Positions 23,294 through 56,527 of a stretch of DNA of 64,000 nucleotides are shown one piece after another. The notes under the pieces are model-generated. The model made no database searches and had not been told where the DNA came from. It worked only from the letters and a program-made list of their open reading frames with translations. The position numbers and the translations under genes were made by a program. The stretch is from Escherichia phage vB_EcoS-26175I. The stretch is taken from sequence record NC_133255.1; one strand, given 5' to 3'. Position 1 is the first letter of the stretch; the number at the start of each line of letters is the position of its first letter.

Positions 23294-23689
23294 TTAGTCG
23301 TAGCACCACCATAACCCACGCTTACGCAGATCATGATCGCGATTATAGTCGTAATTTTCTGGATCTTTCATCACACGATGAAGTTCGCGACGGTTTCCCT
23401 GACGAACCATTTTGTTAGAATGCCACTTAACATTCCTACTAACAGAATCCCACCAGTGCCCATCTTTCTTCTCGTTACGGATGATATTTTCCTGAATCTC
23501 CTTCTCAATTTCATCCCAAGTTTTAGCCCATGCTTCATTGGATCGAACTTGATAATACTTCCACTGCTTACCATCCCTATCCGTGTAGATATACGGAATA
23601 CGGATATTAGTGCTATGAAAATTATAAGTAGAACGATGTGCATCACGCCAGTGACGATCACCAGATTGTTTACGATATGTACGGCTCAT
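23294..23689 (-). CDS. hypothetical basic Trp-rich protein
   Basis: 131-aa ORF. Confidence 0.5.
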   Translation of the reverse strand: MSRTYRKQSGDRHWRDAHRSTYNFHSTNIRIPYIYTDRDGKQWKYYQVRSNEAWAKTWDEIEKEIQENIIRNEKKDGHWWDSVSRNVKWHSNKMVRQGNRRELHRVMKDPENYDYNRDHDLRKRGLWWCYD

Positions 23690-23947: not shown

Positions 23948-23985
23948 ATACAAGAAAACCCCAGACTACCTATTCAATAGCTGGG
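23948..23985 (-). terminator. rho-independent terminator (bidirectional hairpin)
   Basis: AACCCCAG...CTGGGGTT stem. Confidence 0.45.
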
Positions 23986-23997
23986 GTTTATTATTAA

Positions 23998-24297
23998 TTA
24001 GATAATTTCGACAATATCCTGAGTTACAAAACCGTCGAATTCATCAGAGATACCACCTGTAAAGGTGATGCCCATAATCATTGCATCCATCTTTTTAATC
24101 TCCGAGATTTTCATACCTGCTTTACTATTCTTATAGTATTTGCGAGGATTCCCACACATCCAACAAGAACAGATGCAAGGAGTGGTAGTGATAATGCCTA
24201 ACCGCTTAGGACTTTCTTCATGTGGGAAGACTGTCCAATACTTTTTGCGATTGTTTTTCACACGTTGCCGGTGATGGCGTCTTAATGCTCGATCCAC
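23998..24297 (-). CDS. mini radical-SAM protein, NrdG-like glycyl-radical activase candidate
   Basis: C-x3-C-x2-C (CICSCWMC) and Gly-rich ITFTGGISD resembling NrdG SLSGGDP; only 99 aa. Confidence 0.4.
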   Translation of the reverse strand: MDRALRRHHRQRVKNNRKKYWTVFPHEESPKRLGIITTTPCICSCWMCGNPRKYYKNSKAGMKISEIKKMDAMIMGITFTGGISDEFDGFVTQDIVEII

Positions 24298-24378
24298 ACA
24301 TTTCTCCTAAAACTTGGGAGATAAATGGAGTTTGCTCGACTACCTTGCGTAGCTGGGAGAAATCGTATCCAAATCCCA

Positions 24379-24747
24379 TTATATCGCCTGAGTAAATGTA
24401 CGACTAATAACGTCGTTCTGTTGTTCACGCGTCAATGCGTTAAATCGAACAGCATAGCCAGAGACACGGATGGTCAACTGAGGATATTTTTCAGGATGTT
24501 TCTGTGCATCCAAAAGCTGATCACGGCTTAACACATTGACATTTAGGTGCTGACCACCCTCGACTTGAGGAACCACTTCCACATCTACAATGCGAAAGGC
24601 CTCAGGGTCAAAGTGAGGTGTGATACCTTCTAGATCTTCGACTAGAACTTTCTGTTTAAGTTCACCATCTTTAGAATATAGTTGAATGATCTGATTGTTA
24701 TGAACAATGTTAATTACGCCAGACTTAAGACTTTGATATGCTTTCAT
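24379..24747 (-). CDS. grcA: autonomous glycyl radical cofactor, GrcA/YfiD-like
   Basis: C-terminal region almost identical in pattern to E. coli GrcA ([10 protein letters not shown]...[28 protein letters not shown]); glycyl-radical motif RVSGY. Confidence 0.75.
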
Positions 24748-25111
24748 TAGATCTCCCTGATGTTAGAATTTGGCTCAGCTTTTTGTTAACCCAGAAGCAA
24801 GATAAAAACTGGAAGGCAGGCTTGCTTATTAAGTGAATACCCGATAATCGCTCGTAGTCCGGCTTGTGGATTGATAGTCCCATTCAGTTTAATAAGCACA
24901 GGAGCTTTGATTTTAACGTTGCGATCTCCTGGTCTGTTGCAACTACGTGATTGCTCACGCTAAGACAATGGCTATCTAAAGTCCTAGCTTCTACATTTAT
25001 ACTCCTGGATAGCATGGAGTTGCAGTCTACTTCCTGCTGTCACGCCCGGCCATTTATAGAATGTGGACTCTCTTCTCAGCAGGATCTGGTACAAAGACCT
25101 GATCCTCTGTT

Positions 25112-25187
25112 TGGTAGTTAGTAGTGGATTTGAACCACTGTAGTCGCCCCGTATGAAGGAGGTGCATAACCACTCTGCCAACTAACT
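25112..25187 (-). tRNA. tRNA-Met/Ile2 (anticodon CAU), CCA encoded
   Basis: Hand-folded cloverleaf: acceptor AGTTAGT/ACTAACT, T-arm AGTGG-TTCAAAT-CCACT, loop TTCATAC. Confidence 0.5.
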
Positions 25188-25193
25188 ATAATT

Positions 25194-25269
25194 TGGTACT
25201 CCGAGTTGGAATCGAACCAACGTTTGACGATTATCGGTCGCCCGTTCTAACCTATTGAACTATCAGAGC
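25194..25269 (-). tRNA. tRNA-Ile (anticodon GAU), loop CCGATAA with C at position 33
   Basis: Hand-folded: D-stem GTTC/GAAC, T-arm GTTGG-TTCGATT-CCAAC. Confidence 0.5.
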
Positions 25270-25270
25270 A

Positions 25271-25537
25271 TTAATACGGGTACTTGGCTCTTTTCACTGC
25301 TCTTTCAAATTCTCTAATATGTTCTCTAGAGAGTGCAGATAAATCAAAGGCACAAGATACTAAACGTTCTTTCTTGAAGAATCCTAAATAAAAGGAGGCT
25401 GTTATACATTGCGTAGGTCTAGCAAAGATCTTGTAAACTCCGGATTTAGGGATTCCCATACCCTTTTGATAATTACTGCCATTTGTAGGCCCAGCCATTA
25501 AGTTTTTGGGTACTAAGTCAAAACGTATTTTAATCAT
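25271..25537 (-). CDS. hypothetical protein
   Basis: 88-aa ORF. Confidence 0.45.
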   Translation of the reverse strand: MIKIRFDLVPKNLMAGPTNGSNYQKGMGIPKSGVYKIFARPTQCITASFYLGFFKKERLVSCAFDLSALSREHIREFERAVKRAKYPY

Positions 25538-25827
25538 CGCATAATATCCAAATAAGATTCATAACGATAGTCTGTTAGGCCTTCCTCCGTCACCGTAACC
25601 TTCACTGGAGGTACCCGACGAACTAAACCATGAATCATCTTGTACTGAATAGACTTAGATGGTTCGTGATCTTTTGGAAATACTTGTTTAACCGTTACTA
25701 CTTTGAAGCCTTCACGAGGTGTTAGCACAACAACTTGATCACCTTCTTTTATTTTCCAAGACTCAGGAAATTCGTAAGTATAGCGTTGACCACCAGTTTG
25801 GAACACGACAGAAAGATAACGTTTCAT
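25534..25827 (-). CDS. hypothetical protein
   Basis: 97-aa ORF downstream of an early promoter. Confidence 0.5.
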   Translation of the reverse strand: MKRYLSVVFQTGGQRYTYEFPESWKIKEGDQVVVLTPREGFKVVTVKQVFPKDHEPSKSIQYKMIHGLVRRVPPVKVTVTEEGLTDYRYESYLDIMR

Positions 25828-25857
25828 TTGGTTTCCCTCTCATTAATTTATATAAAT

Positions 25858-25886
25858 ATTATAACAAGAAATAAGAGAGAAGGCAA
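25858..25886 (-). promoter_or_regulatory. early sigma70 promoter (TTGCCT / TATAAT)
   Basis: Same module. Confidence 0.5.
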
Positions 25887-25905
25887 ATGAATTTTTTAAA
25901 TTTGA

Positions 25906-25977
25906 TGCTCCCACCAGGAATCGAACCCAGTTCAGATGCTTACAAGGCAACTGCATCGCCAGCAATGCTTTAGGAGC
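25906..25977 (-). tRNA. tRNA-Thr (anticodon UGU)
   Basis: Hand-folded: loop CTTGTAA, T-arm CTGGG-TTCGATT-CCTGG. Confidence 0.5.
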
Positions 25978-26143
25978 ATTAACCCGTTATTTCAACGGGA
26001 TTTCTTTTTCATATACAGGAGACTTATCAGACATTACTGTCCTAGCCAACTGCTGTAGAAATTCGAAGGAGAGTTTTAAACGTTCTTCACCCAACTCAAC
26101 CTCAACGCACTTCATTTGTTTATCAACCTTTAGCTTTAGATTA

Positions 26144-26365
26144 TCAGCCATCTTCGGATTCTCTTTGCTCAGCTATTGCTAGCCAGTTTGGTAAAAGAAA
26201 CTTCGTACGAAATTCTTCATATGTTTCTTCTGGATGAAAGCTATAACCTTGCTTTTCATCATTTAATAAAACCGAACCGTCTTCCTGTTCATAAGCTCGG
26301 TATGTTTCACCAATAATTAAAACTCGTCTATTAGGATTTTTATTACGAAACTCAAAAACGTGCAT
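26144..26365 (-). CDS. hypothetical protein
   Basis: 73-aa ORF. Confidence 0.45.
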   Translation of the reverse strand: MHVFEFRNKNPNRRVLIIGETYRAYEQEDGSVLLNDEKQGYSFHPEETYEEFRTKFLLPNWLAIAEQRESEDG

Positions 26366-26380
26366 AACGTTTCCTTAAAT

Positions 26381-26455
26381 TGGTGCGGGATACGAGAGTC
26401 GAACTCGTGTCTACTGGTTGGAAGCCAGTTATTCTAGCCACTGAACTAATCACGC
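26381..26455 (-). tRNA. tRNA-Gly (anticodon UCC)
   Basis: Hand-folded: anticodon stem ACTGG/CCAGT, loop CTTCCAA. Confidence 0.55.
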
Positions 26456-26461
26456 ATGAAT

Positions 26462-26537
26462 TGGCTGGAGAAGGAGGAATCGAACCTACCATTAACGGAG
26501 TCAAAGGCCGTTGTGCTAACCGTTACACTACTCTCCA
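26462..26537 (-). tRNA. tRNA-Gln (anticodon UUG)
   Basis: Hand-folded: loop CTTTGAC. Confidence 0.45.
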
Positions 26538-26543
26538 AGTATT

Positions 26544-26619
26544 TGGCTGGGATGCCACGGATCGAACGTGGAACCTTCGGAGTCAGAGGCCGACGATCTG
26601 CCAATTGATCTACATCCCA
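26544..26619 (-). tRNA. tRNA-Gln (anticodon CUG)
   Basis: Hand-folded: loop CTCTGAC, D-stem GATC/GATC. Confidence 0.45.
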
Positions 26620-26627
26620 ATAATTTT

Positions 26628-26828
26628 TTATTCTACAGGAACCGTGGCGATTGGATCAGGTTCTTCTAGACGTTTACCATTATGATCAACACGAATAATA
26701 CCACAACCCTCACAGATTACAACAGCACCATAGCCTTCTTTAACTTCGGCTTCTGTAATCAGCCCAGAAAGATCACCAGTATCTTTTCCCCACATATCAA
26801 TGGAACATTCTTTGCAGAAATCAGCCAT
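26628..26828 (-). CDS. small zinc-ribbon protein (CKEC...CEGC)
   Basis: 66-aa ORF with two CxxC pairs. Confidence 0.45.
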   Translation of the reverse strand: MADFCKECSIDMWGKDTGDLSGLITEAEVKEGYGAVVICEGCGIIRVDHNGKRLEEPDPIATVPVE

Positions 26829-26851
26829 ATTTTATTTCCCGTTTAAGTTAG

Positions 26852-26927
26852 TTGGTGCATCCTCAGGGAATCGAACCCCGATCGTAAAGTTCGTAGCTTT
26901 ACATTCTTTCCATTGAAATAAGGACGC
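26852..26927 (-). tRNA. tRNA-Arg (anticodon ACG)
   Basis: Hand-folded: perfect anticodon stem TAAAG/CTTTA, loop CTACGAA. Confidence 0.6.
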
Positions 26928-26933
26928 AATATT

Positions 26934-27010
26934 TGGGGTGACTAGTGGAATTCGAATCCACATAGGCCTGATTCACAATCAGGATCATTAACCAATTATG
27001 ATATAGCCAC
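26934..27010 (-). tRNA. tRNA-His (anticodon GUG), discriminator C
   Basis: Hand-folded: anticodon stem CCTGA/TCAGG, loop TTGTGAA. Confidence 0.6.
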
Positions 27011-27188
27011 AATTGAAATCTCTAGTTATCCCTTTCGTAGGGGCTAAAGGGCGATACCCATCCTAAAGACTTCAATTGTGGCGGCTCTCCGAAACTCATC
27101 ACACTAACAACTAGTTGATTACTTCTGGATTCTCGCCCAGAAAATTCTCTAGAAAGGTGCACCGTTACTCTTTGAGCCATTGAATATC

Positions 27189-27320
27189 AAGAAGTAGAAG
27201 GACTCGAACCTTCACGAGATAGACCATTTATCTCAGCCTCGTTTTCGGGTATCTTATGAGGAGTGGATGTTCCCCTTACGCCCTTTAGGAAGCCCCGTCT
27301 ACCGATTCCGGCATACTTCA
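27189..27320 (-). ncRNA. tRNA-like element with canonical T-arm (GAAGG-TTCGAGT-CCTTC) but no cloverleaf I could complete
   Basis: T-arm at 27197-27213; no 5' acceptor partner within normal tRNA length. Confidence 0.25.
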
Positions 27321-27325
27321 AGATT

Positions 27326-27413
27326 TGGCAGAAGATAATGGAGTCGAACCATCACCGTATCACTACAGCGGGCCGGTTTTCAAGACCGGTTACGTACCAC
27401 TACGTCCTATCTT
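27326..27413 (-). tRNA. tRNA-Ser (anticodon UGA), class II with long variable arm
   Basis: Hand-folded: anticodon stem CCGGT/ACCGG, loop CTTGAAA; 88 nt; acceptor AGAAGAT/ATCTTCT. Confidence 0.6.
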
Positions 27414-27770
27414 CTATTGTTCGTATATTACAAAGTTTACAGATTCAGAGTAATAACCATTACTAGAACCATGCCATTTAACGGTTACACAGCCTTTAGC
27501 TGTGGCAAACTTATACCATGTATGGGTTACTGAATCCCAATCTTCTGTAGCGTGTGTGATTACTTCCTCTGCTTCTATGATTGGATAACCTAAAAGGTCA
27601 TGTAAATCACCAATAATATCATCTATATGAACATCTTCACAGCAGTCCTGCTCATGATAAAACTTATAGTTCTTACCATCAGTACAAATGAAGATAAGAG
27701 TATCTTGGTCTTGGCATACATTAGTAAAAATTTTGCCAAGCATTTCATTATAGATTGTCACTTCTGACAT
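27414..27770 (-). CDS. hypothetical acidic protein
   Basis: 118-aa ORF. Confidence 0.5.
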   Translation of the reverse strand: MSEVTIYNEMLGKIFTNVCQDQDTLIFICTDGKNYKFYHEQDCCEDVHIDDIIGDLHDLLGYPIIEAEEVITHATEDWDSVTHTWYKFATAKGCVTVKWHGSSNGYYSESVNFVIYEQ

Positions 27771-27792
27771 ATTAGTTTCCTAGTAAGTTGTT

Positions 27793-27882
27793 TGGCGGAA
27801 GAAGAGAGATTCGAACTCTCAAGCCGTTTTACCAGTCAGCCACTTTCCAAGCGGTTTTCGTCACCTATCGATTTGCTCTTCC
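27793..27882 (-). tRNA. tRNA-Ser (anticodon GGA), class II
   Basis: Hand-folded: loop TTGGAAA; 90 nt; acceptor GGAAGAG/TTCTTCC. Confidence 0.5.
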
Positions 27883-28057
27883 GTAGATCTCAGGATTAAA
27901 TCATAAACTTCATTAGCGGATACTGGAAGTATGAGATTATACATCTTTTGGTCATACCTCTGACCATACTCTATAAACACATACTCTTTAGTTAATGTAT
28001 TAACAGCTAACCAGATATCAGTTATAGGAGTTTTCATCATGAGTTAATCCAATGTTT

Positions 28058-28138
28058 GGTAGGGATGGAGGGACTCGAACCCACACCCGAAGACTAGAAC
28101 CTAAATCTAGCGCGTCTGCCAATTTCGCCACATCCCCA
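28058..28138 (-). tRNA. tRNA-Leu (anticodon UAG)
   Basis: Hand-folded: anticodon stem CTAGA/TCTAG, loop TTTAGGT; 81 nt. Confidence 0.45.
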
Positions 28139-28144
28139 TTTTAT

Positions 28145-28363
28145 TTAGTTAGAAATAAATAATAATCCCGCAACAATAGAACCTACGCCACTGAATACCA
28201 TTATCAGCATAGCTTCTAAGCTGATAAAGCGGACAGTATATGGAGCGCCCCAAGAATAATCAGTAAAGAAAGTTTTCTTTTCTTTAGCTAAATCTTTAAT
28301 AGTTCTAAAATAGATAGCTAGTGCTAAAGCTGCAAGAACTACAGAGGCTGCTAAGAATACCAT
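28145..28363 (-). CDS. small membrane protein
   Basis: 72-aa ORF with two transmembrane segments. Confidence 0.45.
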   Translation of the reverse strand: MVFLAASVVLAALALAIYFRTIKDLAKEKKTFFTDYSWGAPYTVRFISLEAMLIMVFSGVGSIVAGLLFISN

Positions 28364-28382
28364 ATTATTTCCTTAATTTGTT

Positions 28383-28458
28383 TGGTGGAGTCACTCAGAA
28401 TTGAACTGAGTTCCACTGCTTGCAAGGCAGTAAGTTTAACCAAATAACCTATGACCCC
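28383..28458 (-). tRNA. tRNA-Ala (anticodon UGC) with G3:U70
   Basis: Hand-folded: anticodon stem ACTGC/GCAGT, loop CTTGCAA; acceptor GGGGTCA with G3-U70 identity pair. Confidence 0.6.
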
Positions 28459-28463
28459 GAATT

Positions 28464-28542
28464 TGGTGGAGAATAAGAGATTCGAACTCTTCTGATATCC
28501 TCGGTGCAAGCGAGGTGTCCACTCCAAGCAGACCCATTCCCC
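28464..28542 (-). tRNA. second UGC-anticodon tRNA (Ala-like, G3:U70, 11-nt D-loop, 7-nt variable region)
   Basis: Hand-folded: anticodon stem CCTCG/CGAGG, loop CTTGCAC. Confidence 0.4.
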
Positions 28543-28551
28543 AAAATTTAT

Positions 28552-28815
28552 TTATTCTCTATACATATCGAGAACAGTTGCTACAATCTGAGCTTCTAGC
28601 CTAGCAATATCTTTATTCACTATATCAGATTCTACTACTAAGTGATTATATATTGCTTCAGTTTTAGCAAGATCTATATCAGATAGTTTATTAAGACTAT
28701 TATAATACTTAGCATTATTGCAACGTTTCTTCATATCGGAAACTCGTTTATGGAGGGTTCTTTGTTGATAACGTTGCGACATTAGTTTCTTAGCCATATC
28801 TTTAAGATCAAACAT
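28552..28815 (-). CDS. hypothetical protein
   Basis: 87-aa ORF. Confidence 0.45.
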   Translation of the reverse strand: MFDLKDMAKKLMSQRYQQRTLHKRVSDMKKRCNNAKYYNSLNKLSDIDLAKTEAIYNHLVVESDIVNKDIARLEAQIVATVLDMYRE

Positions 28816-29080
28816 AGATATTCCTTCTAGTTTACTAAGGCTATTAGCTCGGTGTGCGTATTACCCTCAGACATTAGCCAGTAGAGGATAACCGCTCTTC
28901 ACAAACCCGATACACTATTCAGTTGCCGCTGAATCTAGTGGACTAATCTAGAACTTATTGCAAAGTATCCCCTGCCATTAGGGGTCTAATTGCAATTGTG
29001 CTTTTTGGCAGCCAGTCCTAGGTCGAGCTAATACCTTAGTGAACTTTGATGAGGATTTCTCCTCATCAATTTATATAAAT

Positions 29081-29109
29081 ATTATAACAAGAAATTAAGC
29101 ATCAAGCAA
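29081..29109 (-). promoter_or_regulatory. early sigma70 promoter (TTGCTT / TATAAT)
   Basis: Same module; followed by about 265 bp without an ORF. Confidence 0.55.
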
Positions 29110-29461
29110 GTACATTTTTAGCGATTTCTTGTAGTTCCTTAACGTCGCTAACGAAAAGGTAATCAGAGCTTCCAGAGTGCATACTCTGCATAACCACACC
29201 ATCCTCTGGTGCATCTTCCTTCAAAGTAAGTCCTAACCAGAACTTGGCAAAACCAGGTGTTACCTCACCTTGACTTGCCTTGAACACATCGCCTTCTGTG
29301 ATCTCTTGACCAGTAGAGAGTCCCATGTATGGTACGTTCAGATCAATATCTTTGTAGAACTCAGCTAGATCTTGCTCGAAATCCCAACCTTTAGAGATAG
29401 CGAACTCCATTGTTACATGACCGAAATAGCCTTGAACCTTGCTTGATAATTGCATTTGCAA
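29102..29461 (-). CDS. hypothetical protein
   Basis: 119-aa ORF. Confidence 0.55.
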   Translation of the reverse strand: MQMQLSSKVQGYFGHVTMEFAISKGWDFEQDLAEFYKDIDLNVPYMGLSTGQEITEGDVFKASQGEVTPGFAKFWLGLTLKEDAPEDGVVMQSMHSGSSDYLFVSDVKELQEIAKNVLA

Positions 29462-29480
29462 TTCCTTATTTTGAGTTAAT

Positions 29481-29554
29481 TGGTACTCGGTGATAGAATC
29501 GAACTATCGCAACCGCCGTGTAAAGACGGGGTTCTCCCATTAAACTAACCGAGT
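29481..29554 (-). tRNA. tRNA-Val (anticodon UAC)
   Basis: Hand-folded: loop TTTACAC, T-arm GATAG-TTCGATT-CTATC. Confidence 0.55.
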
Positions 29555-29558
29555 AATT

Positions 29559-29635
29559 TGGTGGATTGCCTGGGATTCGAACCCAGAACTGACGGATTAA
29601 AGGTCCGCTACTCTTATCCAGTTGAGCTAGCAATC
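29559..29635 (-). tRNA. tRNA-Lys (anticodon UUU), loop CCTTTAA with C at position 33
   Basis: Aligns arm by arm with E. coli tRNA-Lys except C33 in place of U33. Confidence 0.6.
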
Positions 29636-30100
29636 CAATTTTTCTACTAATAATTTAAAAGCATCTAGTACAGGTACTTCAAACCATTCTCCAGATACTC
29701 TATAATCTTTAAGAAGATTATGTAATTCTTTCTCTGTACGTCTTTTATCAGACGAAAATCTGAAATGGTATAGCTTGTAGTCTCTATTAGGTGAATAAGT
29801 TTGATAACTTGCTAACCTCTCATTCACATCTATAGTCATACCTATTTTATACATGCCTGGCCATGCTGGATTACCAATTACATATACAAAACCTTCCGTT
29901 ATAGGTATTTTATGCTCCCTTTTATACTTTAAGAGATTTAAGGCTGCCATTCGATAACAGAATCTAAACTCTGAAGTTTTTAACTTACCTTCTTTACCCG
30001 AAATTTCGTTATATTTGCTCATATAAGCTCTTATGAGCTTATCATCTATAATGAAGTTATCAGGAAGGTTTAAGGCAGCTAAAACTTTATTAATTAGCAT
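29627..30100 (-). CDS. T5orf172-domain protein (GIY-YIG-like putative homing endonuclease)
   Basis: GFVYVIGNPAWPGMYKIGMT...RL motif typical of the T5orf172 / MUG113 family. Confidence 0.6.
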   Translation of the reverse strand: MLINKVLAALNLPDNFIIDDKLIRAYMSKYNEISGKEGKLKTSEFRFCYRMAALNLLKYKREHKIPITEGFVYVIGNPAWPGMYKIGMTIDVNERLASYQTYSPNRDYKLYHFRFSSDKRRTEKELHNLLKDYRVSGEWFEVPVLDAFKLLVEKLDC

Positions 30101-30277
30101 AGACTTCCTTAATAGAATAAACTTTTAAGTAAGGGTGATTAATACCAAATTCCGCCATCACTTCGTTTTCATCTTTACCGTAATGGGCTAGTGGATACTT
30201 CTTACGATCTTTGCTAGAACGTAGATCACTTACTTTTAAACGAAATAATTTCATTTCGAAATCCTTCTATTAAATTG

Positions 30278-30354
30278 GAAGCGGGTGCAGGAATCGAACC
30301 TACCTCTTTCTAGCTTATGAGACTAGCGATCTCTACCAGAGATCTAACCCGCAA
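30278..30354 (-). tRNA. tRNA-Met/Ile2 (anticodon CAU)
   Basis: Hand-folded: loop CTCATAA; 1:72 mismatch. Confidence 0.45.
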
Positions 30355-30359
30355 TTGTT

Positions 30360-30437
30360 TGGTCTCCGTGGGAGGATTTGAACCCCCGACCCTACCGCCC
30401 CAAACGGAACGCTCTGGCCAAACTGAGCTACACGGAG
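30360..30437 (-). tRNA. tRNA-Pro (anticodon UGG)
   Basis: Hand-folded: loop TTTGGGG, acceptor CTCCGTG/CACGGAG. Confidence 0.55.
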
Positions 30438-30469
30438 AATATTCTTTGTTAACTCACTTTATAAAATAT

Positions 30470-30498
30470 ATTATACAGATATTTAAGCATAATAGCAA
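30470..30498 (-). promoter_or_regulatory. early sigma70 promoter (TTGCTA / TATAAT) driving a tRNA operon
   Basis: Same module, directly upstream of tRNA genes. Confidence 0.55.
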
Positions 30499-30744
30499 AT
30501 GAGTTTTTAATAAATTTACTTATTGCGTAGGCCACCTCACGCTTCAAACGCTCTGCTGACAAAGAAGTTTGCGAGACTTCTCTTAAATGCCAGAATAGAC
30601 CCGCCGATCTATCGGAACCTACTCAATAAGTAAACTTTCGTTTACCTACACCTACCTGGTCGGGAGGATTTTCAGCGACTAGAACCGGCCGGAAACTCAT
30701 CGCCTTGTTTATCTAGGAGTCCGTTCTCTAGGAAGCAGAAACCT

Positions 30745-30818
30745 AAATTTGGTGCGGTCGGAGGGAATCGAACCCTCAACTTCTGGTTGGCAACCAAAAA
30801 TTATACCTTTTAACTACG
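30745..30818 (-). tRNA. tRNA-Gly (anticodon GCC)
   Basis: Hand-folded: loop TTGCCAA, T-arm GAGGG-TTCGATT-CCCTC. Confidence 0.55.
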
Positions 30819-30825
30819 AACGCAT

Positions 30826-30955
30826 AATAAGTCAATCTAGGCAGGACTTGAACCTGCTATCACTTGTGCGGATTTACGAGAACCATTCTTTCACTCGAAT
30901 CGAACGAGCTTCTACCCTCGGCAAGCTGGTGTCCCCTCTCCACCACGCTAGAATG
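30826..30955 (-). ncRNA. two tRNA-like T-arm elements without complete cloverleaves (pseudo-tRNAs or small RNAs)
   Basis: GCAGG-ACTTGAA-CCTGC at 30836-30852 and ACTCG-AATCGAA-CGAGC at 30888-30904; no matching acceptor stems. Confidence 0.25.
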
Positions 30956-30956
30956 T

Positions 30957-31034
30957 TTAATTGGTACACCTGCTGAGATTCAAACTCAGGATCTTCCGAT
31001 TAAGAGTCGGTTGCTTTAAGTCAACTAAGCTACA
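30957..31034 (-). tRNA. tRNA with loop CTCTTAA (anticodon CUU, Lys)
   Basis: Hand-folded: D-stem GCTT/AAGC, T-arm CTGAG-TTTGAAT-CTCAG. Confidence 0.45.
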
Positions 31035-31579
31035 GATGCATTTATATCTTTATAGGACTTACCAGCCAGTCTTGTATAGCGTTTTCGCAAACCATTATCT
31101 GACATGCCCAATTCTCTAGAAGCTCTAGACCATGAGTAATTTTTAACCCAGTACTCTATTTGTTCTACAGTAATTTCTTGTGGATTTTGACAGTGCTGTT
31201 TGCAGTAACTAGCTCTTTTAGCTATTTCTTTGTTGCAAATAGGACAGAAATTTTTATCTGAACTTAATCCACGTTCTTCTATAGTTTTGAGAATATGATC
31301 AGCTTTACTTCGTACAATCAGATTTTCAAGAGAGAAATTTAGTTTATTTGTATCATCATGATCTACTTCTAAGTCAGAACTCAAAGATGGTAGATCTTTG
31401 TATACTCTCGCTAATACTCTGTGTAATAGAAGATGTTTTGATTTTCCATTATGTTGAACAGTAAAGAAAGGATACCCAGAAGTATTAATCTGTATTGAAA
31501 GTATACGATTAACTTTAGTACTAAATACTTCCCCAGTCTCACTTATTAAGTATTCTGGATATTCGGGTATTTCTTTCAT
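31025..31579 (-). CDS. HNH homing endonuclease
   Basis: HRVLARVY...EVDHDDTNKLNFSLENL HNH core; 184 aa; inserted among tRNA genes. Confidence 0.7.
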   Translation of the reverse strand: MKEIPEYPEYLISETGEVFSTKVNRILSIQINTSGYPFFTVQHNGKSKHLLLHRVLARVYKDLPSLSSDLEVDHDDTNKLNFSLENLIVRSKADHILKTIEERGLSSDKNFCPICNKEIAKRASYCKQHCQNPQEITVEQIEYWVKNYSWSRASRELGMSDNGLRKRYTRLAGKSYKDINASVA

Positions 31580-31595
31580 TACTGTTCCTTATAAT

Positions 31596-31672
31596 TTGGC
31601 GCGACCGATGGGATTCGAACCCACATTCTCTCCCGTGACAGGGGAGTACCATTACCAAGCCAGCCCCGATCG
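31596..31672 (-). tRNA. tRNA-Asp (anticodon GUC)
   Basis: Hand-folded: perfect anticodon stem CTCCC/GGGAG, loop CTGTCAC. Confidence 0.6.
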
Positions 31673-31682
31673 CATAATTTGT

Positions 31683-31868
31683 TTACTCAGCTTTGAGTTT
31701 TTCGATAGCTTCCTCAACCTCTTTTAGAGCTTCACGACGCTCTACTTGACCTTGAAGTTCTTCAAGAAGTTCAGCTTTCAGAGCCTTAATAATATTACCA
31801 CGAACCTTAATATTATTAATCAGATTATCACGATCAGCTTCTAGTCGAGCAATTGCACGAGTTGTCAT
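31683..31868 (-). CDS. small coiled-coil protein
   Basis: 61-aa ORF. Confidence 0.4.
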   Translation of the reverse strand: MTTRAIARLEADRDNLINNIKVRGNIIKALKAELLEELQGQVERREALKEVEEAIEKLKAE

Positions 31869-31895
31869 ATCTATTTCCTCAGTTGTTAGTGAAAT

Positions 31896-31981
31896 TGGCG
31901 GGCCGTGTAGGAGTTGAACCTACTTTATCCTTGCGGATACGGATTAACAGTCCGGCGCTTAAACCGTTCAGCCAACGGCCC
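31896..31981 (-). tRNA. class II (long variable arm, Tyr-like body) tRNA with anticodon loop CTGTTAA (GUU)
   Basis: 86 nt; acceptor GGGCCGT/ACGGCCC; 3-bp D-stem; loop differs from the Tyr loop CTGTAAA at one position. Confidence 0.4.
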
Positions 31982-31988
31982 TAAAATT

Positions 31989-32064
31989 TGGACGACCGCA
32001 TGAGATTCGAACTCACATAAGGAGGTTTTGCAGGCCTCCGCCTAAGCCATTCAGCCAACGGTCG
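31989..32064 (-). tRNA. tRNA-Cys (anticodon GCA), discriminator U
   Basis: Hand-folded: loop CTGCAAA. Confidence 0.55.
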
Positions 32065-32242
32065 ATTTATCTTGTTTTTCGAGATTAGTAAATTCTAAGT
32101 CTTTGGAATGCCCTATAGATCTAGCATAATAACCATCTCCAGCATCGTAGCCTGATTTACCACACTCACACATCTTAAACTCCCGATAACGAGTGAATAT
32201 ATGCTCAGAACCACAACACTTAAATTTAACTAACATTTTCAT
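32051..32242 (-). CDS. small Cys-rich protein
   Basis: 63-aa ORF; its 3' end overlaps the tRNA-Cys call. Confidence 0.35.
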   Translation of the reverse strand: MKMLVKFKCCGSEHIFTRYREFKMCECGKSGYDAGDGYYARSIGHSKDLEFTNLEKQDKSTVG

Positions 32243-32481
32243 GAAACACGCTCCGGTAGATCTTCTAATTTATACTCAGTAGCTACATTAGTAGCGTCTA
32301 GTAATAAACCCATATGTTTAAGGATTTTAGTAATAGATTCGCCTTCAGCTTCTTCTACAAAAGTGCGTAGTTGAATGAAGTCAATACCACCATCCATACC
32401 AGAGAAAATGTTTAGTAAGCGAAGCATTACCAGCTTACGTTCTTTTAATTCTTGTTCTGTCATGTTGCTTCTCCAGTTCAA
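32239..32481 (-). CDS. hypothetical protein
   Basis: 80-aa ORF. Confidence 0.45.
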   Translation of the reverse strand: MNWRSNMTEQELKERKLVMLRLLNIFSGMDGGIDFIQLRTFVEEAEGESITKILKHMGLLLDATNVATEYKLEDLPERVS

Positions 32482-32493
32482 TTTATGTAATAA

Positions 32494-32521
32494 TTATACA
32501 GAACTTTAAGGATTTAAGCAA
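32494..32521 (-). promoter_or_regulatory. early sigma70 promoter (TTGCTT / TATAAT)
   Basis: Same module. Confidence 0.5.
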
Positions 32522-32801
32522 CTACATTTTTCAGAAATTTGATGCCTTTCTTTTTCTTCTTATATTTCCACGTTAACGGGTTCTGTCGATTATGAACGCT
32601 TGAGATCTTTGTCTCGTCAAAGTTCTTCAATACCATGTAATCACATGCCAACTGCTCTAGTGGAATGGTTTCTCCATCAAAAGCATAAACATAAGGCTGT
32701 TGACTAGCACGATAATGATAGACTTTGTTAATTCTACATTTCAGCGACTTATCCGCGCAGTAAATAAAGAAGTTTTCAGGATGCATCAGCATCTCCTTCA
32801 A
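32514..32801 (-). CDS. hypothetical protein
   Basis: 95-aa ORF. Confidence 0.45.
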   Translation of the reverse strand: MKEMLMHPENFFIYCADKSLKCRINKVYHYRASQQPYVYAFDGETIPLEQLACDYMVLKNFDETKISSVHNRQNPLTWKYKKKKKGIKFLKNVVA

Positions 32802-32803
32802 AT

Positions 32804-32878
32804 TGGTGCACCCTGTTCGTATCGAACGAACCTCTCAAGCTCTTCAGGCAAGCGCTAATCCATCTCAGCTAAAGGTGC
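32804..32878 (-). tRNA. tRNA, possibly Phe (anticodon GAA) with a weak anticodon stem
   Basis: T-arm GTTCG-TTCGATA-CGAAC, acceptor GCACCTT/AGGGTGC; loop CTGAAGA. Confidence 0.35.
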
Positions 32879-32884
32879 AAATAT

Positions 32885-32962
32885 TGGCAAACCTACTAGG
32901 ACTCGAACCTAGACCGTACGGTTTTGGAGACCGACATGCTGTCCAGTAACACTCTAGGAATG
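32885..32962 (-). tRNA. tRNA-Trp (anticodon CCA), acceptor stem imperfect
   Basis: Anticodon arm CGGT-CTCCAAA-ACCG, T-arm CTAGG-TTCGAGT-CCTAG. Confidence 0.4.
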
Positions 32963-32969
32963 CAGAAAT

Positions 32970-33046
32970 TGGCGTCCTGTGCGGGGATCGAACCCGCAAA
33001 TCCTACCTTGAAAGGGTAGTGACTTTACCAGTTTGTCTAACAGGAC
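32970..33046 (-). tRNA. tRNA-Glu (anticodon UUC)
   Basis: Perfect acceptor GTCCTGT/ACAGGAC; anticodon stem CTACC/GGTAG, loop CTTTCAA. Confidence 0.65.
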
Positions 33047-33053
33047 TTAAATT

Positions 33054-33134
33054 TGGTGGGGGATGGAGGACTCGAACCTCCGCGTGGTATACCCGGTCTA
33101 CAGCCAGGCGCCGTCGCCACTGAGCCAATCCCCC
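33054..33134 (-). tRNA. tRNA-Tyr (anticodon GUA)
   Basis: Acceptor GGGGGAT/ATCCCCC; anticodon arm CCTGG-CTGTAGA-CCGGG; 81 nt. Confidence 0.5.
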
Positions 33135-33260
33135 CCTATTTGAATGAAAAGTAAGTCGGTTAAACTCAAGGTGGAATATTTCAGGATTTCCTGACTTTAC
33201 CCCTAAAAGTCAACTCGCTTAATTACTTCTCATTCAGATATGTTTCCAAATTAGATAACT

Positions 33261-33289
33261 ATTATATCAAGTTTTATGGCACTGAGCAA
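33261..33289 (-). promoter_or_regulatory. early sigma70 promoter (TTGCTC / TATAAT) upstream of a tRNA operon
   Basis: Same module; -35 lies inside a 12-bp perfect inverted repeat. Confidence 0.5.
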
Positions 33290-33318
33290 GTCAAATTTTA
33301 AAGAACTTGCTCAGTGCT
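33278..33318. promoter_or_regulatory. 12-bp perfect inverted repeat GCACTGAGCAAG...CTTGCTCAGTGC overlapping the promoter -35 (candidate operator)
   Basis: Read from sequence; 17-nt spacer; no T-run, so not a typical terminator. Confidence 0.4.
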
Positions 33319-33325
33319 GTATTAG

Positions 33326-33601
33326 TTAGTCGAACTTAGGAGTGACAGTTAAGGAGAACGGAAGTTCAAAAACTTCTTCACCCTCATCACTAACAGTGAT
33401 TACACGACCTTTAAGTTCAGACATTGAAATATCAATATCAGCTTTTGCATCTGGAGCCATGCCAGCTTCAACACATTTAGCTTTAATTTCCGGCAGAAGT
33501 TCTACATCATAGAAATAAAGCCATTCAATCTCACCTTCCCAGCCTTCCCAGGATTTACAGATTGCACTTTCAATACCAGTTGTTATAACACGATTTTGCA
33601 T
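33326..33601 (-). CDS. hypothetical protein
   Basis: 91-aa ORF. Confidence 0.5.
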   Translation of the reverse strand: MQNRVITTGIESAICKSWEGWEGEIEWLYFYDVELLPEIKAKCVEAGMAPDAKADIDISMSELKGRVITVSDEGEEVFELPFSLTVTPKFD

Positions 33602-33631
33602 TCGTTAACTCCTTCATCAATTTATATAACT

Positions 33632-33661
33632 ATTATACCAGAAATTTAAAGCAAAAGGCAA
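33632..33661 (-). promoter_or_regulatory. early sigma70 promoter
   Basis: Same module; -35 TTGCCT-like. Confidence 0.45.
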
Positions 33662-33691
33662 GTACATTTTTAAAAATTCTGTTTGGAGGAG

Positions 33692-33898
33692 CTAAACTCC
33701 AGATTCTTCAGCCAGATCAAGCCCAACCAATGTGATTGCCATAATAGCCGCGCCATGTTCTTTCTCTCCTAGCTCTTTGGCTTGAGTGAGAATATTTAGG
33801 AACTGCTTGTGGAAATCTTCCACTTCTTCTGTCATGCCTGCTTCAGAAATAATACCTTTCAGCATAAAGCGCTGTGCAGTAATTTCAGGATTAGCCAT
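33692..33898 (-). CDS. hypothetical protein
   Basis: 68-aa ORF. Confidence 0.4.
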   Translation of the reverse strand: MANPEITAQRFMLKGIISEAGMTEEVEDFHKQFLNILTQAKELGEKEHGAAIMAITLVGLDLAEESGV

Positions 33899-34049
33899 TT
33901 ATTATCTCCAGTTATTTAGAATGTAAGCCAAACTTAGGATCATAGCGATCATAAGTCGTACCATTAGTTGAAGTCTTGATGCTATGAAAACGACAGTACA
34001 TAAATTTACGTAGTGCTTTCTTAATAGCTTTCATTTTATTTCCTTAATT

Positions 34050-34126
34050 TGGTAGGGGTGGTGGGATTCGAACCCACAAAACCTGAATTTTAAGTCCAGT
34101 ACCTATGCCAATTCGATTACACCCCC
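34050..34126 (-). tRNA. class I tRNA with anticodon loop CTTAAAA (UAA, Leu-type anticodon on a short-variable-arm body)
   Basis: Acceptor GGGGGTG/CACCCCT, T-arm GTGGG-TTCGAAT-CCCAC, anticodon stem CTGGA/TTCAG. Confidence 0.4.
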
Positions 34127-34135
34127 ATGTAATCT

Positions 34136-34483
34136 TTAGAGTTCGTAACCCTGAATATATCGAGCAAAACCAGTAATCTCGAACTGAATTGCCCATGCTA
34201 CTTCCATATGCTCAATCTTACTAAAATGAGCGTCAGACTGTTCTAGGAAATAACGAGAGATTATAGGGAACTCAATGTCAAAATCTTCCTTATCCATACC
34301 ATAGAAGAAGTTTCCAGAAATATTACGAACTTCACGAAAGAAATCCTCAATCTGAAAATCCATCAGAGGATAAGTATATTCCTCTTTGCTATCATCCGTT
34401 TGGAAGAAGCGGAAATGCACAAGGCAAGAGCCAATCAGATTTACTGCTGGAGTAGTGTAAATATCCATGTTAACCTCGATCAA
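34136..34483 (-). CDS. hypothetical protein
   Basis: 115-aa ORF. Confidence 0.5.
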   Translation of the reverse strand: MIEVNMDIYTTPAVNLIGSCLVHFRFFQTDDSKEEYTYPLMDFQIEDFFREVRNISGNFFYGMDKEDFDIEFPIISRYFLEQSDAHFSKIEHMEVAWAIQFEITGFARYIQGYEL

Positions 34484-34655
34484 TATCTAGAGAAATTCCA
34501 AATTCTGGATTAATACCAGAACCATTACATGCTGCGCATTCCCACTCTTCAAAACGCATATCGCCAGGTTCAGCATCATTAATAGTACCTGTTCCATGGC
34601 AGTGAGTACACATGCACTCTTCTAGTTCTTGTTTAAGCTCTTGAAACTTAGACAT
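34470..34655 (-). CDS. small zinc-finger protein (CxxCxGxG repeats, DnaJ-like)
   Basis: CTHCHGTG and CAACNGSG motifs; 61 aa. Confidence 0.5.
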   Translation of the reverse strand: MSKFQELKQELEECMCTHCHGTGTINDAEPGDMRFEEWECAACNGSGINPEFGISLDIDRG

Positions 34656-34672
34656 ATAGTCTCCTAGTTAAT

Positions 34673-34750
34673 TGGTGGCTCCCGGAGGATTCGAACCTAC
34701 CTACCTTTCGCTTATGAGGCGACGGCTCATACCAAATGAGCTTGAGAACC
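34673..34750 (-). tRNA. tRNA-Met/Ile2 (anticodon CAU)
   Basis: D-stem GCTC/GAGC, loop CTCATAA, T-arm GTAGG-TTCGAAT-CCTCC. Confidence 0.5.
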
Positions 34751-34755
34751 AAATT

Positions 34756-34844
34756 TGGAGGAAGAAGTGGGAATCGAACCCACAAGGCTATGTTTCAAAC
34801 CGACAGATTAGCAATCTGCTGCAATACCGTTATGCTATTCTTCC
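34756..34844 (-). tRNA. tRNA-Ser (anticodon GCU), class II
   Basis: 89 nt; perfect acceptor GGAAGAA/TTCTTCC; loop TTGCTAA; long variable arm. Confidence 0.55.
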
Positions 34845-35354
34845 TTAATTATTTCGGGCATATTCCCCATGAAGTTTCTCTCTCAGTTGAATTAGAGCTT
34901 CATTTGCTGCTTCAGGAGTACTGTGCAGCCCTGCGGAGTATGACTTACCTTTAAACATTATTCTATCCTGCCACTGACCAGATGCTTTGTGGTAGGATAC
35001 TCCCTTAAATCCGCTAGTATTCCTAGAAGATTTACTAGCATTATGAGTATTAGTGGTACTATCCGCTGCTCTTAAATTTAAAGGATGTATGTTTAACTTA
35101 TTGCAGTCTTTATGATCAATCATTTCCGGCCTATACCCATAATATAGTATAAATACTATGATATGAGCTAAGTAATCTTGGTGATCAACGTTAACTCTGA
35201 TATACCCAGAGCTTTTGTGCAAAGATCCCGCAGGTTTATTGGCAAACTTAGTATTAAATATCTTCTCCTCTCTGGAGTTTCCGGAGAGCGGATTCCACAC
35301 CAGTACACCATCTTCTAAACGGAATCTATAAAGTATAGACTCATAGTCTAGCAT
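34845..35354 (-). CDS. HNH-AP2 homing endonuclease
   Basis: HNH core IDHKDCNKLNIHPLNLR plus AP2-type DNA-binding segment GVSYHKASGQWQ; 169 aa. Confidence 0.7.
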   Translation of the reverse strand: MLDYESILYRFRLEDGVLVWNPLSGNSREEKIFNTKFANKPAGSLHKSSGYIRVNVDHQDYLAHIIVFILYYGYRPEMIDHKDCNKLNIHPLNLRAADSTTNTHNASKSSRNTSGFKGVSYHKASGQWQDRIMFKGKSYSAGLHSTPEAANEALIQLREKLHGEYARNN

Positions 35355-35387
35355 AAATAGTTCCTAATCTTACAAATTTATGAATAT

Positions 35388-35416
35388 ATTATACAGAAAA
35401 TTTCGGCATTAAGCAA
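35388..35416 (-). promoter_or_regulatory. early sigma70 promoter (TTGCTT / TATAAT)
   Basis: Same module. Confidence 0.55.
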
Positions 35417-35424
35417 GTGAAATT

Positions 35425-35739
35425 TTACTGAACATTGCACTGATATACCTGTTTGATACGTGTCACTGACTTCTTAGTTGGGTTGATAGAAGAACCCTGC
35501 CACCAACGTGATTCTGAGCTGAGAACAGCACCAGGAACAGCTTGTTCTTTTGGCAGAACAATATCAAAACACTGTTCACCCATATTATCTTTAATGTGCG
35601 ACCAAATGTCTAGAGTAAATCGTTCTAGCTTATTACAAACTTGAACTTGACAAAGTTCCTGTTGTGGAGCAGCAAATACAGAAGTAGATACTAGAGTCAA
35701 TGCAAGTACAATGCGTTTCATATTTGATTCCTCTCTCAA
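35425..35739 (-). CDS. secreted Cys-containing protein (signal peptide)
   Basis: 104-aa ORF with N-terminal signal sequence. Confidence 0.5.
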   Translation of the reverse strand: MREESNMKRIVLALTLVSTSVFAAPQQELCQVQVCNKLERFTLDIWSHIKDNMGEQCFDIVLPKEQAVPGAVLSSESRWWQGSSINPTKKSVTRIKQVYQCNVQ

Positions 35740-35751
35740 ATTTATAAATAT

Positions 35752-35780
35752 ATTATACAGAAATTTTCTATATTAAGCAA
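35752..35780 (-). promoter_or_regulatory. early sigma70 promoter (TTGCTT / TATAAT)
   Basis: Same module. Confidence 0.55.
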
Positions 35781-35793
35781 GTGAAAATTTCTG

Positions 35794-35820
35794 TATAATA
35801 GCCCTCGCTTAGAGGGCTAT
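35794..35820 (-). terminator. hairpin TAGCCCTC..GAGGGCTA within a conserved TATAATAGCC-hairpin element
   Basis: Just downstream of the pnuC stop; the same element recurs at 47315-47336. Confidence 0.4.
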
Positions 35821-35827
35821 AGCTACT

Positions 35828-37613: not shown

Positions 37614-37621
37614 TCAAGCAA
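37593..37621 (-). promoter_or_regulatory. early sigma70 promoter (TTGCTT / TATAAT) for nadR-pnuC
   Basis: Same module. Confidence 0.6.
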
Positions 37622-37825
37622 TCGAATTTTTAAACTTTTTAGTGGAAAAATCTCAAGGCATTTAGTGGTAGCACGTTGTTGCTGCAATAATAGTATATGA
37701 TTCTAAAGAATTAAATACTAAAGACCTTAGTTGAATAACTTATGGGATTTTCTTTTACCTTAAATACAGAAAAGCCCGCGCTCTCGGAGGAAACGCGGGC
37801 TTGTTTCGAAGATTACGTGGAACTA

Positions 37826-38770: not shown

Positions 38771-38781
38771 ATATTTCCTTA

Positions 38782-38982
38782 TTATTTAGAAGAGTTATCT
38801 ACTACAGTTACTTTAGTTGCAGAAATAAATAGGCTAGCATCCACAGCAAATTCAGGAGCTTTGATATCTCCATTATGAAATATGACTATACCGGAGACTA
38901 CTTCAAATGCTAGTGCTGTAACATCGGTGGTCTTTAGTTGTGAATGTTCACCTACTACTTTTACTATATATCGTGTTTTCAC
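38782..38982 (-). CDS. hypothetical protein
   Basis: 66-aa ORF. Confidence 0.4.
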   Translation of the reverse strand: MKTRYIVKVVGEHSQLKTTDVTALAFEVVSGIVIFHNGDIKAPEFAVDASLFISATKVTVVDNSSK

Positions 38983-39008
38983 TTTATTTTCCTAGCAGTT
39001 AATAAAAT

Positions 39009-39083: not shown

Positions 39084-39091
39084 AGAATAAA

Positions 39092-54652: not shown

Positions 54653-56527
54653 ATGAATCGCAATGAAGAACTAAAGTATAAAGGAATGCAGTCCTTGATT
54701 CGAAACTGCAAAGAAATTATCGAAGGTTCAGCAGATGAAGAGCTGCTGTTTAATAATGCCAATAAGCCCTCAGAACGTTTCCCTACACAAAGGGATATGC
54801 TTGCAGGGGAATTGAGTAAATATCTGATTCTGGAAGAAATGCCAATCCAGATTCGAAATGCTCACATGATTGGTGATATTCACTTCCATGATGCTGATTA
54901 CGCTGCGTTAGGTATGACTAACTGTTGCCTGGTTGCTTTGGAAGATATGTTGAAGAATGGTATGAAGGTTGGTAATGCTGAAATCAGTACACCAAACTCT
55001 ATTACTACTGCGGCTGCTATCACAGCTCAGATTATCACTCAGGTTAGTTCACATCAATATGGTGGTACTTCTGTAGACCGATTAGATGAAGTACTGGCTC
55101 CTTATGTTCGTAAGTCTTATGATAAGAATCATGCGTTTGCAAAACGTTGGACTAAGGATGAAGCCAAAGCATCTGTAATGGCTACGGAAATGACTGAGAA
55201 AGAAGTTTACGATGCCTGTCAGGGCCTGGAGTATGAAATCAATACGATGTTCAACTCTAATGGTCAGAGTCCATTTATTACCTTTGGTTTTGGTCTAGGA
55301 ACTTCCTGGGAAGCACGTCTTGTACAGAAAGCAATCTTAGAAGTGCGTATGGATGGTTTGGGTATCAATAAACGTACAGCTATCTTCCCTAAACTGGTAT
55401 TTGTTTTGCGTGATGGCGTAAACATGAAACCTGGTGATGTTAACTATGATATCAAGAAGTTAGCTATGAAATGTACTGCCGAACGTATGTACCCCGACTA
55501 TATCAGTTATGATAAGGTTGTAGAAGTTACTGGTGACTATAAAGTCTCTATGGGTTGTCGTTCATTCCTGGCTGCTGCGGAAGATGGTGAAACTTCTGGT
55601 CGTAACAACTTAGGCGTTGTTTCCGTAAACCTTCCTCGAATCGCTATCGAAGCAGAAGGAAATATTGATCTATTCTTCGATCTGCTTGAGCTGCGTGTGG
55701 ATACCGCGTTAAAAGCATTGGAGTGGAGGGTTGATCGCTTAAAATACATTCAAGCTAAAGCTGCGCCCATCCTCTATATGTCAGGAGCCTTTGGATTACG
55801 TCTGGGACCCGATGAATATGTATTTGATCATTTCTACAAGCGTGCTTCTGTATCTCTAGGATATATTGGTTGCCACGAAATGTTGCAGCTCATGTTTGGT
55901 AAAGATGTAGATACAATGTCTGAGTCTTGTATCAAGTTCGTTCAACGTGTGCTACAATATATGCGTGATCGTGCTGATCAGAAGAAGGAAGAGACTCAGT
56001 TAGGTTATAGTCTGTATGCTACACCATCTGAATCTCTGTGTGATCGCTTCTGTCGTCTAGACCGTGAGTACTTCCCAGAGCATGAGGATATTCTGGCTAA
56101 AGGATACTACACTAACTCCCATCACCTTGATGTAGAACGTAAGGTTGCTCCAAATGTGAAATTTGATTATGAGTCTAACTTTACTCCTATTGCTTCTGGT
56201 GGGTGCATTTCCTACGTGGAATTACCTGACATGAAGAAATTCCCAGATGCCCTAGAATGGGTAATTAACTATGCTGCAAGTAAAGTTCACTACTTTGGTA
56301 TTAATACTCCAGTTGATTCTTGTGGTGAGTGTGGATTCTTAGGCGAAACAATTGCTTCTGAAGATGGATTTAAATGCCCAATTTGTGGCAACCATGATCC
56401 TGAGACTCTTGAGGTAACACGTCGTGTTTGTGGGTACCTTGGTAATCCAGGTGCACGCCCATTTAACCCAGGTAAACAGCATGAGGTTATGGGACGAATC
56501 AAGCATGCAGATGTAAGAGCTAAATAA
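54653..56527 (+). CDS. nrdD: anaerobic ribonucleoside-triphosphate reductase
   Basis: 624 aa; C-terminal Zn ribbon CPICGNHD and glycyl-radical motif RRVCGYLG. Confidence 0.85.
   Translation: MNRNEELKYKGMQSLIRNCKEIIEGSADEELLFNNANKPSERFPTQRDMLAGELSKYLILEEMPIQIRNAHMIGDIHFHDADYAALGMTNCCLVALEDMLKNGMKVGNAEISTPNSITTAAAITAQIITQVSSHQYGGTSVDRLDEVLAPYVRKSYDKNHAFAKRWTKDEAKASVMATEMTEKEVYDACQGLEYEINTMFNSNGQSPFITFGFGLGTSWEARLVQKAILEVRMDGLGINKRTAIFPKLVFVLRDGVNMKPGDVNYDIKKLAMKCTAERMYPDYISYDKVVEVTGDYKVSMGCRSFLAAAEDGETSGRNNLGVVSVNLPRIAIEAEGNIDLFFDLLELRVDTALKALEWRVDRLKYIQAKAAPILYMSGAFGLRLGPDEYVFDHFYKRASVSLGYIGCHEMLQLMFGKDVDTMSESCIKFVQRVLQYMRDRADQKKEETQLGYSLYATPSESLCDRFCRLDREYFPEHEDILAKGYYTNSHHLDVERKVAPNVKFDYESNFTPIASGGCISYVELPDMKKFPDALEWVINYAASKVHYFGINTPVDSCGECGFLGETIASEDGFKCPICGNHDPETLEVTRRVCGYLGNPGARPFNPGKQHEVMGRIKHADVRAK

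Follow-up and report, generated by a model that had tools for sequence, protein, structure and literature searches.

A GrcA-type spare glycyl-radical protein and an unrelated small CxCxxC protein encoded side by side in a T5-like Escherichia phage

Two validated "spare part" proteins are described in PMC8683613, namely YfiD (GrcA) of Escherichia coli and Y06I, the product of vs.6 of phage T4. As summarised there from Wagner et al. 2001, PFL-AE installs a glycyl radical on both proteins, and both restore the activity of pyruvate formate-lyase (PFL) that has been cleaved by O2. The same paper gives free YfiD as a poor substrate of PFL-AE. In phages T5, EPS7 and SPC35, nrdD is found together with nrdAB and without nrdG (PMC3653736), and the nrdD-without-nrdG state is thus already published. 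T4 has its own NrdG, whereas the T5-like phages are without it.

Here, these systems are compared with a locus of Escherichia phage vB_EcoS-26175I (NC_133255.1), of which a stretch of 64,000 nucleotides, called the window below, was analysed. A preliminary description of the window had proposed a glycyl-radical module, in which a GrcA-like protein stands next to a short NrdG-like radical-SAM activase, so that the phage may carry its own system to install or replace the radical; as a second option, GrcA may rescue host PFL during infection. The reading considered very likely here is that two unrelated genes of a T5-like phage are transcribed together in a single early unit. The first would encode a GrcA-type spare part for host PFL that is activated by host PflA, the second, ORF99, would encode no activase, and the NrdD of the phage would rely on host NrdG.

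Organisation of the locus

Both genes are found on the minus strand of the window, as the preliminary description had placed them. The grcA-like gene (24379..24747, 122 aa) has GGGAG upstream, and ORF99 (23998..24297, 99 aa) starts with GTG, 5 nt downstream of an AGGAGA Shine-Dalgarno sequence. The two genes are co-oriented with 81 bp between them. Directly 3' of ORF99, a terminator-like hairpin on the same strand (23952..23989; CCCCAG...CUGGGG, then UUUUCUU) was spotted by eye and then confirmed by RNA folding (-19 kcal/mol, z = -4.67, none of 200 shuffles equally stable), while a consensus terminator scan gave no call there. Since the hairpin follows ORF99 directly, grcA and ORF99 probably close one transcription unit, with the hairpin as its putative terminator.

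The 3-kb stretch around both ORFs matches Escherichia phage vB_EcoS-26175II-V with 100% identity, and many genomes of Epseptimavirus and Tequintavirus, T5-like phages of the Demerecviridae, with 97-99.9%. In annotated relatives, the counterpart of the 122-aa ORF is T5p055, and that of ORF99 is T5p054/ORF053 (T5.055), named "hypothetical". Both ORFs lie at the edge of a tRNA island with 31 tRNA genes (25112-40316). The ~365 bp between tRNA-Met and grcA (24748-25111), with no convincing ORF and no Rfam match, are the part that varies among T5-like phages, and only ~88% of the 3-kb query is covered by the alignments with relatives. One of the 31 tRNA genes (40243-40316, minus strand) is called "tRNA-SeC" with anticodon tca by ARAGORN and may be UGA-reading or otherwise atypical. 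Two genes downstream of ORF99, a 131-aa protein (23294-23689, minus strand) is a full-length member of DUF7295 (1.8e-59) and, like ORF99, is conserved in phages with no function assigned to it.

The phage also encodes NrdD, a class III ribonucleotide reductase and glycyl-radical enzyme (54653..56527, plus strand; Pfam NRDD, 4.6e-172, and Gly_radical), about 30 kb from the two ORFs, as had been noted. No nrdG stands beside nrdD; downstream of it, 56833-57684 encodes a Sir2-family protein and 57964-58503 a protein with a HAD_SAK_2 domain, and PhoH (53548-54309) lies between nrdA and nrdD. Between nrdA (50851-53241) and nrdB (49080-50225), an HNH endonuclease ORF of 171 aa (50234-50749, minus strand) is probably a free-standing homing endonuclease.

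The 122-aa protein and its likely client

The likeness to GrcA/YfiD claimed for the product of 24379..24747 is borne out. The protein matches Pfam Gly_radical (PF01228, 4e-18), and in the PDB it matches E. coli GrcA, solved by NMR (6OWR, 2e-29), and PFL (1.6e-26). Over the C-terminal 60 residues, 49 positions are identical to E. coli GrcA and 47 to PflB, and the protein shares with E. coli GrcA the segment GGQHLNVNV, the radical glycine and the ten-residue glycyl-radical segment, which is intact. The motif R94-V-S-G97-Y-A-V is invariant in comparison with GrcA, PflB and vs.6, and Gly97 (codon GGC, 24457..24459, minus strand), the predicted radical-bearing residue, corresponds to Gly734 of PflB. 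In the alignment, all radical-domain residues common to GrcA and PflB are kept. With 122 aa, compared with 127 aa in E. coli GrcA, and a mass of 13.9 kDa, the protein fits the small (~14 kDa) stand-alone GrcA/YfiD format with a PFL-type C-terminal half. In nucleotide comparisons, the 3' half of grcA matches host pflB and tdcE with ~75% identity, and all 5,426 E. coli genomes have such matches, with a median of three per genome.

The N-terminal half sets the phage protein apart from E. coli GrcA, as its first ~55 residues are not confidently alignable, and so does its being encoded by a lytic phage. Because of this N-terminal difference, the NCBIfam GrcA model TIGR04365 gives 118.3 bits, below its equivalog cutoff of 170, with the match confined to residues 54-121. 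The diverged N-terminus thus places the protein in a phage (vs.6-type) subgroup and not with the bacterial equivalog. T4-type vs.6 can be aligned with it from end to end (50-54% identity), the N-terminal half with its MKAYQ... start included. Using tblastn, homologues were found in 1,582 phage records, T4 vs.6 (Y06I) included; ~440 of them are T5-like at 80% identity or more, and more than 1,100 fall below that, most of the sampled ones being T4-like.

That this gene is a grcA is already known, both from the validated T4 homologue and from some T5-like records that annotate it so. In general, the names given to it in T5-like GenBank records are inconsistent, ranging over "pyruvate formate-lyase", "ribonucleotide reductase subunit", "acetyltransferase"(-related), "2-ketobutyrate formate-lyase", "autonomous glycyl radical cofactor" and "hypothetical", and they are partly wrong. 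In Citrobacter phage YZU-L1, the gene is annotated as truncated (204 bp) though the DNA is 99.9% identical.

Homology and the published precedent support the 122-aa protein as a GrcA/YfiD-type spare glycyl-radical domain with host PFL as its likely client, in agreement with the second option of the preliminary description. Traces of O2 would cleave host PFL at its radical glycine, and phage GrcA would dock into the truncated enzyme and replace the lost C-terminal domain, as can be expected from YfiD and T4 Y06I. The host radical-SAM activase PflA would convert Gly97 to a glycyl radical, upon which the conversion of pyruvate to acetyl-CoA and formate would resume, and the supply of fermentative energy and carbon could be sustained in a microaerobic infection. 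This mechanism is transferred to the 122-aa protein from Y06I and YfiD through the homology observed here, with its activity assumed to be like theirs. Like Y06I, it would be a phage-encoded PFL spare part that uses host PFL-AE, with no activase gene adjacent; the two differ in their phage families (Straboviridae for T4, Demerecviridae for the present phage) and in their gene neighbours.

Another client could be the NrdD of the phage itself, which is oxygen-sensitive and had been linked to the GrcA-like protein in the preliminary description. A gene order in the jumbo Klebsiella phage fENko-Kae01 (OR228459, 324-2971) would fit such a role, as nrdD (601 aa), a PFL-type grcA (120 aa) whose product is 66% identical to the present protein, and the gene for an NrdG activase (156 aa) follow each other there. 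However, the identity to PflB and the RVSGYAV motif, together with a lack of similarity to the phage's own NrdD (BLASTP E = 4.9), indicate that the radical domain is PFL-type and not RNR-type, and the jumbo-phage GrcA is likewise without similarity to the NrdD of the present phage. In addition, a spare part must structurally replace the C-terminal domain that its client has lost, and that of NrdD, with RVCGYLG and a Zn ribbon, is unlike the PFL-type radical domain. With grcA also lying far from nrdD in both T4-like and T5-like phages, it is extremely unlikely that phage GrcA is a spare part for NrdD in place of host PFL. The order seen in fENko-Kae01 is nevertheless a real adjacency of grcA and an activase gene, and NrdG-type activases could be able to serve phage GrcA.

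It could also be speculated that phage GrcA is a decoy or inhibitor, which titrates host PflA or occupies PFL and so redirects the flux of pyruvate. The N-terminal half, unlike that of bacterial GrcA and common to T4 vs.6, makes a phage-specific behaviour possible, and the poor performance of free YfiD as a PFL-AE substrate, as given in PMC8683613, would suit a decoy. Yet the same paper reports that T4 Y06I reconstitutes PFL activity. The retention of every radical-domain residue common to GrcA and PflB is what would be expected of a working cofactor, and a role as decoy or inhibitor is considered very unlikely compared with the repair of host PFL.

The 99-aa protein and its family

Radical-SAM activases are built on a partial (beta/alpha)6 barrel, are at least ~150 aa long and contain a Gly-rich SAM-binding motif. 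The features that had led the preliminary description to liken ORF99 to NrdG are present: C41-x3-C45-x2-C48 is preceded by a hydrophobic stretch, a motif scan of the window found this spacing in no other plausible coding ORF, and the Gly-rich stretch reads GITFTGGIS. ORF99 could on these grounds be a miniature radical-SAM activase that charges phage GrcA, NrdD or both and makes the phage independent of host activases; it adjoins grcA, is probably co-transcribed with it, and belongs to a phage that has NrdD and GrcA and is without NrdG or PflA. The likeness to NrdG, however, dissolves when the family of ORF99 is considered.

ORF99 matches phrog_4499 (2.7e-39), of unknown function, and is a full member of the wider family around it, which has no Pfam entry and whose proteins, typically ~70-100 aa long, are widespread in phages and proteobacteria. 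While a word-indexed search with ORF99 returned T5-like relatives only, a profile search of 1.84 billion representatives (E<=0.001) yielded at least 2,183 clusters at 50% identity, with lengths of 69-183 aa (median ~80; among the 150 matches listed, nearly all 69-133 aa). A second indexed search gave 2,934 clusters at 90% identity, all of them "hypothetical" and without a Pfam domain, and the family includes chromosomal copies in Burkholderia and Undibacterium. Its motif, RAxRRHHxxR...TPxxCSCWMCGNPR[KR], combines an N-terminal R/H-rich helix with the core C-S-C-x-x-C-G-N-P-R-[KR]. In alignments of 41 and 60 diverse members, R6, H9, R12, R17, G34, C43, S44, C45, C48 and R52 are invariant or nearly so, and ORF99 carries all of these columns. 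CxCxxC is kept in 40/41 and 60/60 members; all 60 members of the larger alignment have C43, C45 and C48, and C48 is kept in 40/41 of the other. The proteins are basic, with a pI of 9.6 for ORF99, 10.35 for its residues 1-70 and a family median of 10.1. In the T5 lineage, the copies also have a fourth Cys and end in an additional tail (residues ~70-99) that is acidic and variable.

It is this fourth Cys that completes the activase-like spacing within the cluster C41-I-C43-S-C45-W-M-C48 (24154..24177, minus strand). Only 14/41 and 23/60 members (about 35%) have a Cys at position 41, so that the first Cys is missing in ~62-66% of the family, and one T5-like member has Ala there. The GITFTGGIS segment is deleted in T5 itself and in many close homologues. 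The T5-lineage proteins share with NrdG and PflA the bare C-x3-C-x2-C spacing, then N, and differ from them in having no SAM-binding GGE-type motif and no predicted beta/alpha fold. The conserved core of ~55 residues cannot form a radical-SAM barrel, and even the small activase NrdG has 154 aa. AF2 models of ORF99, from inputs of 15 and 60 sequences, consist of helices only (pLDDT 53 and 62) and show no radical-SAM-type fold; with this low-confidence model, Foldseek gave 0 matches in the PDB.

Profile comparisons agree with this. No Pfam match was found for ORF99 at E<=0.1, with Radical_SAM, Fer4_12 and Fer4_14 included, nor for any of 41 family members at E<=0.01. A PDB profile search with the family returned no radical-SAM chain at E<=10, only chance matches to CutA and cellulose synthase (E>0.3), and hhalign of the family profile gave a probability of 0.2% for NrdG and 0.8% for PflA, with the Cys loop alone aligned. 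A PADLOC scan of ORF99 revealed no relationship, and Pfam, NCBIfam, PHROGs and PADLOC together gave only phrog_4499 and the cluster loop of the radical-SAM protein HxsC. The latter NCBIfam match (E = 0.014), which could be counted in favour of an activase, reaches 14 bits against a cutoff of 268 and is rejected as an artefact of the Cys spacing. As judged from its family alignment and the profile comparisons, ORF99 is not a radical-SAM protein, its CxxxCxxC is an accident of the lineage, and a role as miniature activase is extremely unlikely. Of the preliminary description of ORF99, the Cys cluster and the Gly-rich stretch thus stand, while the likeness to NrdG and the assignment to the activases give way to membership in a family with no relation to them, made up of small and basic proteins with CxCxxC.

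With its Arg/His-rich helix, knuckle-like Cys motif and basic pI, ORF99 may tentatively be regarded as a small metal-binding accessory protein that binds nucleic acid, the metal probably being Zn held by C43, C45, C48 and His9. A bolder proposal, considered very unlikely, is that the CSCxxCGNPR[KR] family is a new class of small metal-binding regulators whose four-Cys members, roughly one-third of the family with the T5-like ones included, hold an oxygen-labile Fe-S cluster, so that ORF99 might sense oxygen in T5-like phages, as a partner or regulator of the probably co-transcribed GrcA, and would not be a radical-SAM protein. Literature searches returned nothing relevant on the "CGNPR" motif or on a glycyl radical in T5-like phages.

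A weak hint of an RNA-related role comes from some of the settings in which family members occur. In a metagenomic contig (1-6418), one is flanked by RtcA on one side and by a second RtcB and a PrfH-like RF-1 on the other, one is near an RNA 2'-phosphotransferase (Tpt1) in Erwinia phage Simmy50, and one is inside a tRNA gene cluster of Rhizobium phage RHph_TM39. A tRNA is found within 5 kb of the family gene in only 7/51 non-T5 viral loci, and when the neighbours in the viral loci were clustered, a conserved partner emerged only within a single clade of related temperate phages.

Gene pairing, dependence on host activases and meaning

Among 80 viral loci carrying the ORF99 family, all 29 T5-like ones encode GrcA at a distance of 5 kb or less and none of the 51 others does, at least 8 of the latter being four-Cys variants. 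Five metagenomic and bacterial contexts have unrelated neighbours and no GrcA, and T4-like phages have GrcA and are without the ORF99 family. The pairing is therefore an arrangement of the T5 lineage and not a conserved module, and the glycyl-radical module proposed in the preliminary description is not supported; in the contexts examined outside the T5 lineage, family members, four-Cys ones included, never stand beside glycyl-radical genes. That ORF99 stands beside grcA is probably accidental to the T5 lineage. Within that lineage, the two may still be functionally connected, which is conceivable because they are co-oriented, probably co-transcribed and always adjacent in T5-like phages, where two glycyl-radical proteins occur without a recognisable activase.

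The search for such an activase used tblastn with E. coli NrdG (154 aa) and PflA as probes. The NrdG probe can be regarded as validated, since annotated NrdG proteins of 2,265 phage records are recovered with it. Neither probe found anything in the 64-kb window or in the 50 kb searched outside it in the matching genome record, MK907268, and NrdG and PflA are absent from all 80 viral loci with the ORF99 family. In place of a phage-owned system for installing the radical, phage GrcA and NrdD must then, it would appear, be served by host PflA and host NrdG, respectively, which is consistent with the T4 Y06I precedent.

The main value of the analysis is thus a correction, in that the phage encodes no miniature activase and the CxxxCxxC match is accidental to its lineage. 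What remains would be a well-precedented auxiliary metabolic gene, with GrcA as a probable spare part for host PFL. In addition, ORF99 marks a very large unnamed family of small proteins that deserves a Pfam entry. Finally, the spread of grcA over hundreds of T5-like and many T4-like records suggests that upkeep of host fermentation at low oxygen may be broadly useful to phages of enterobacteria.
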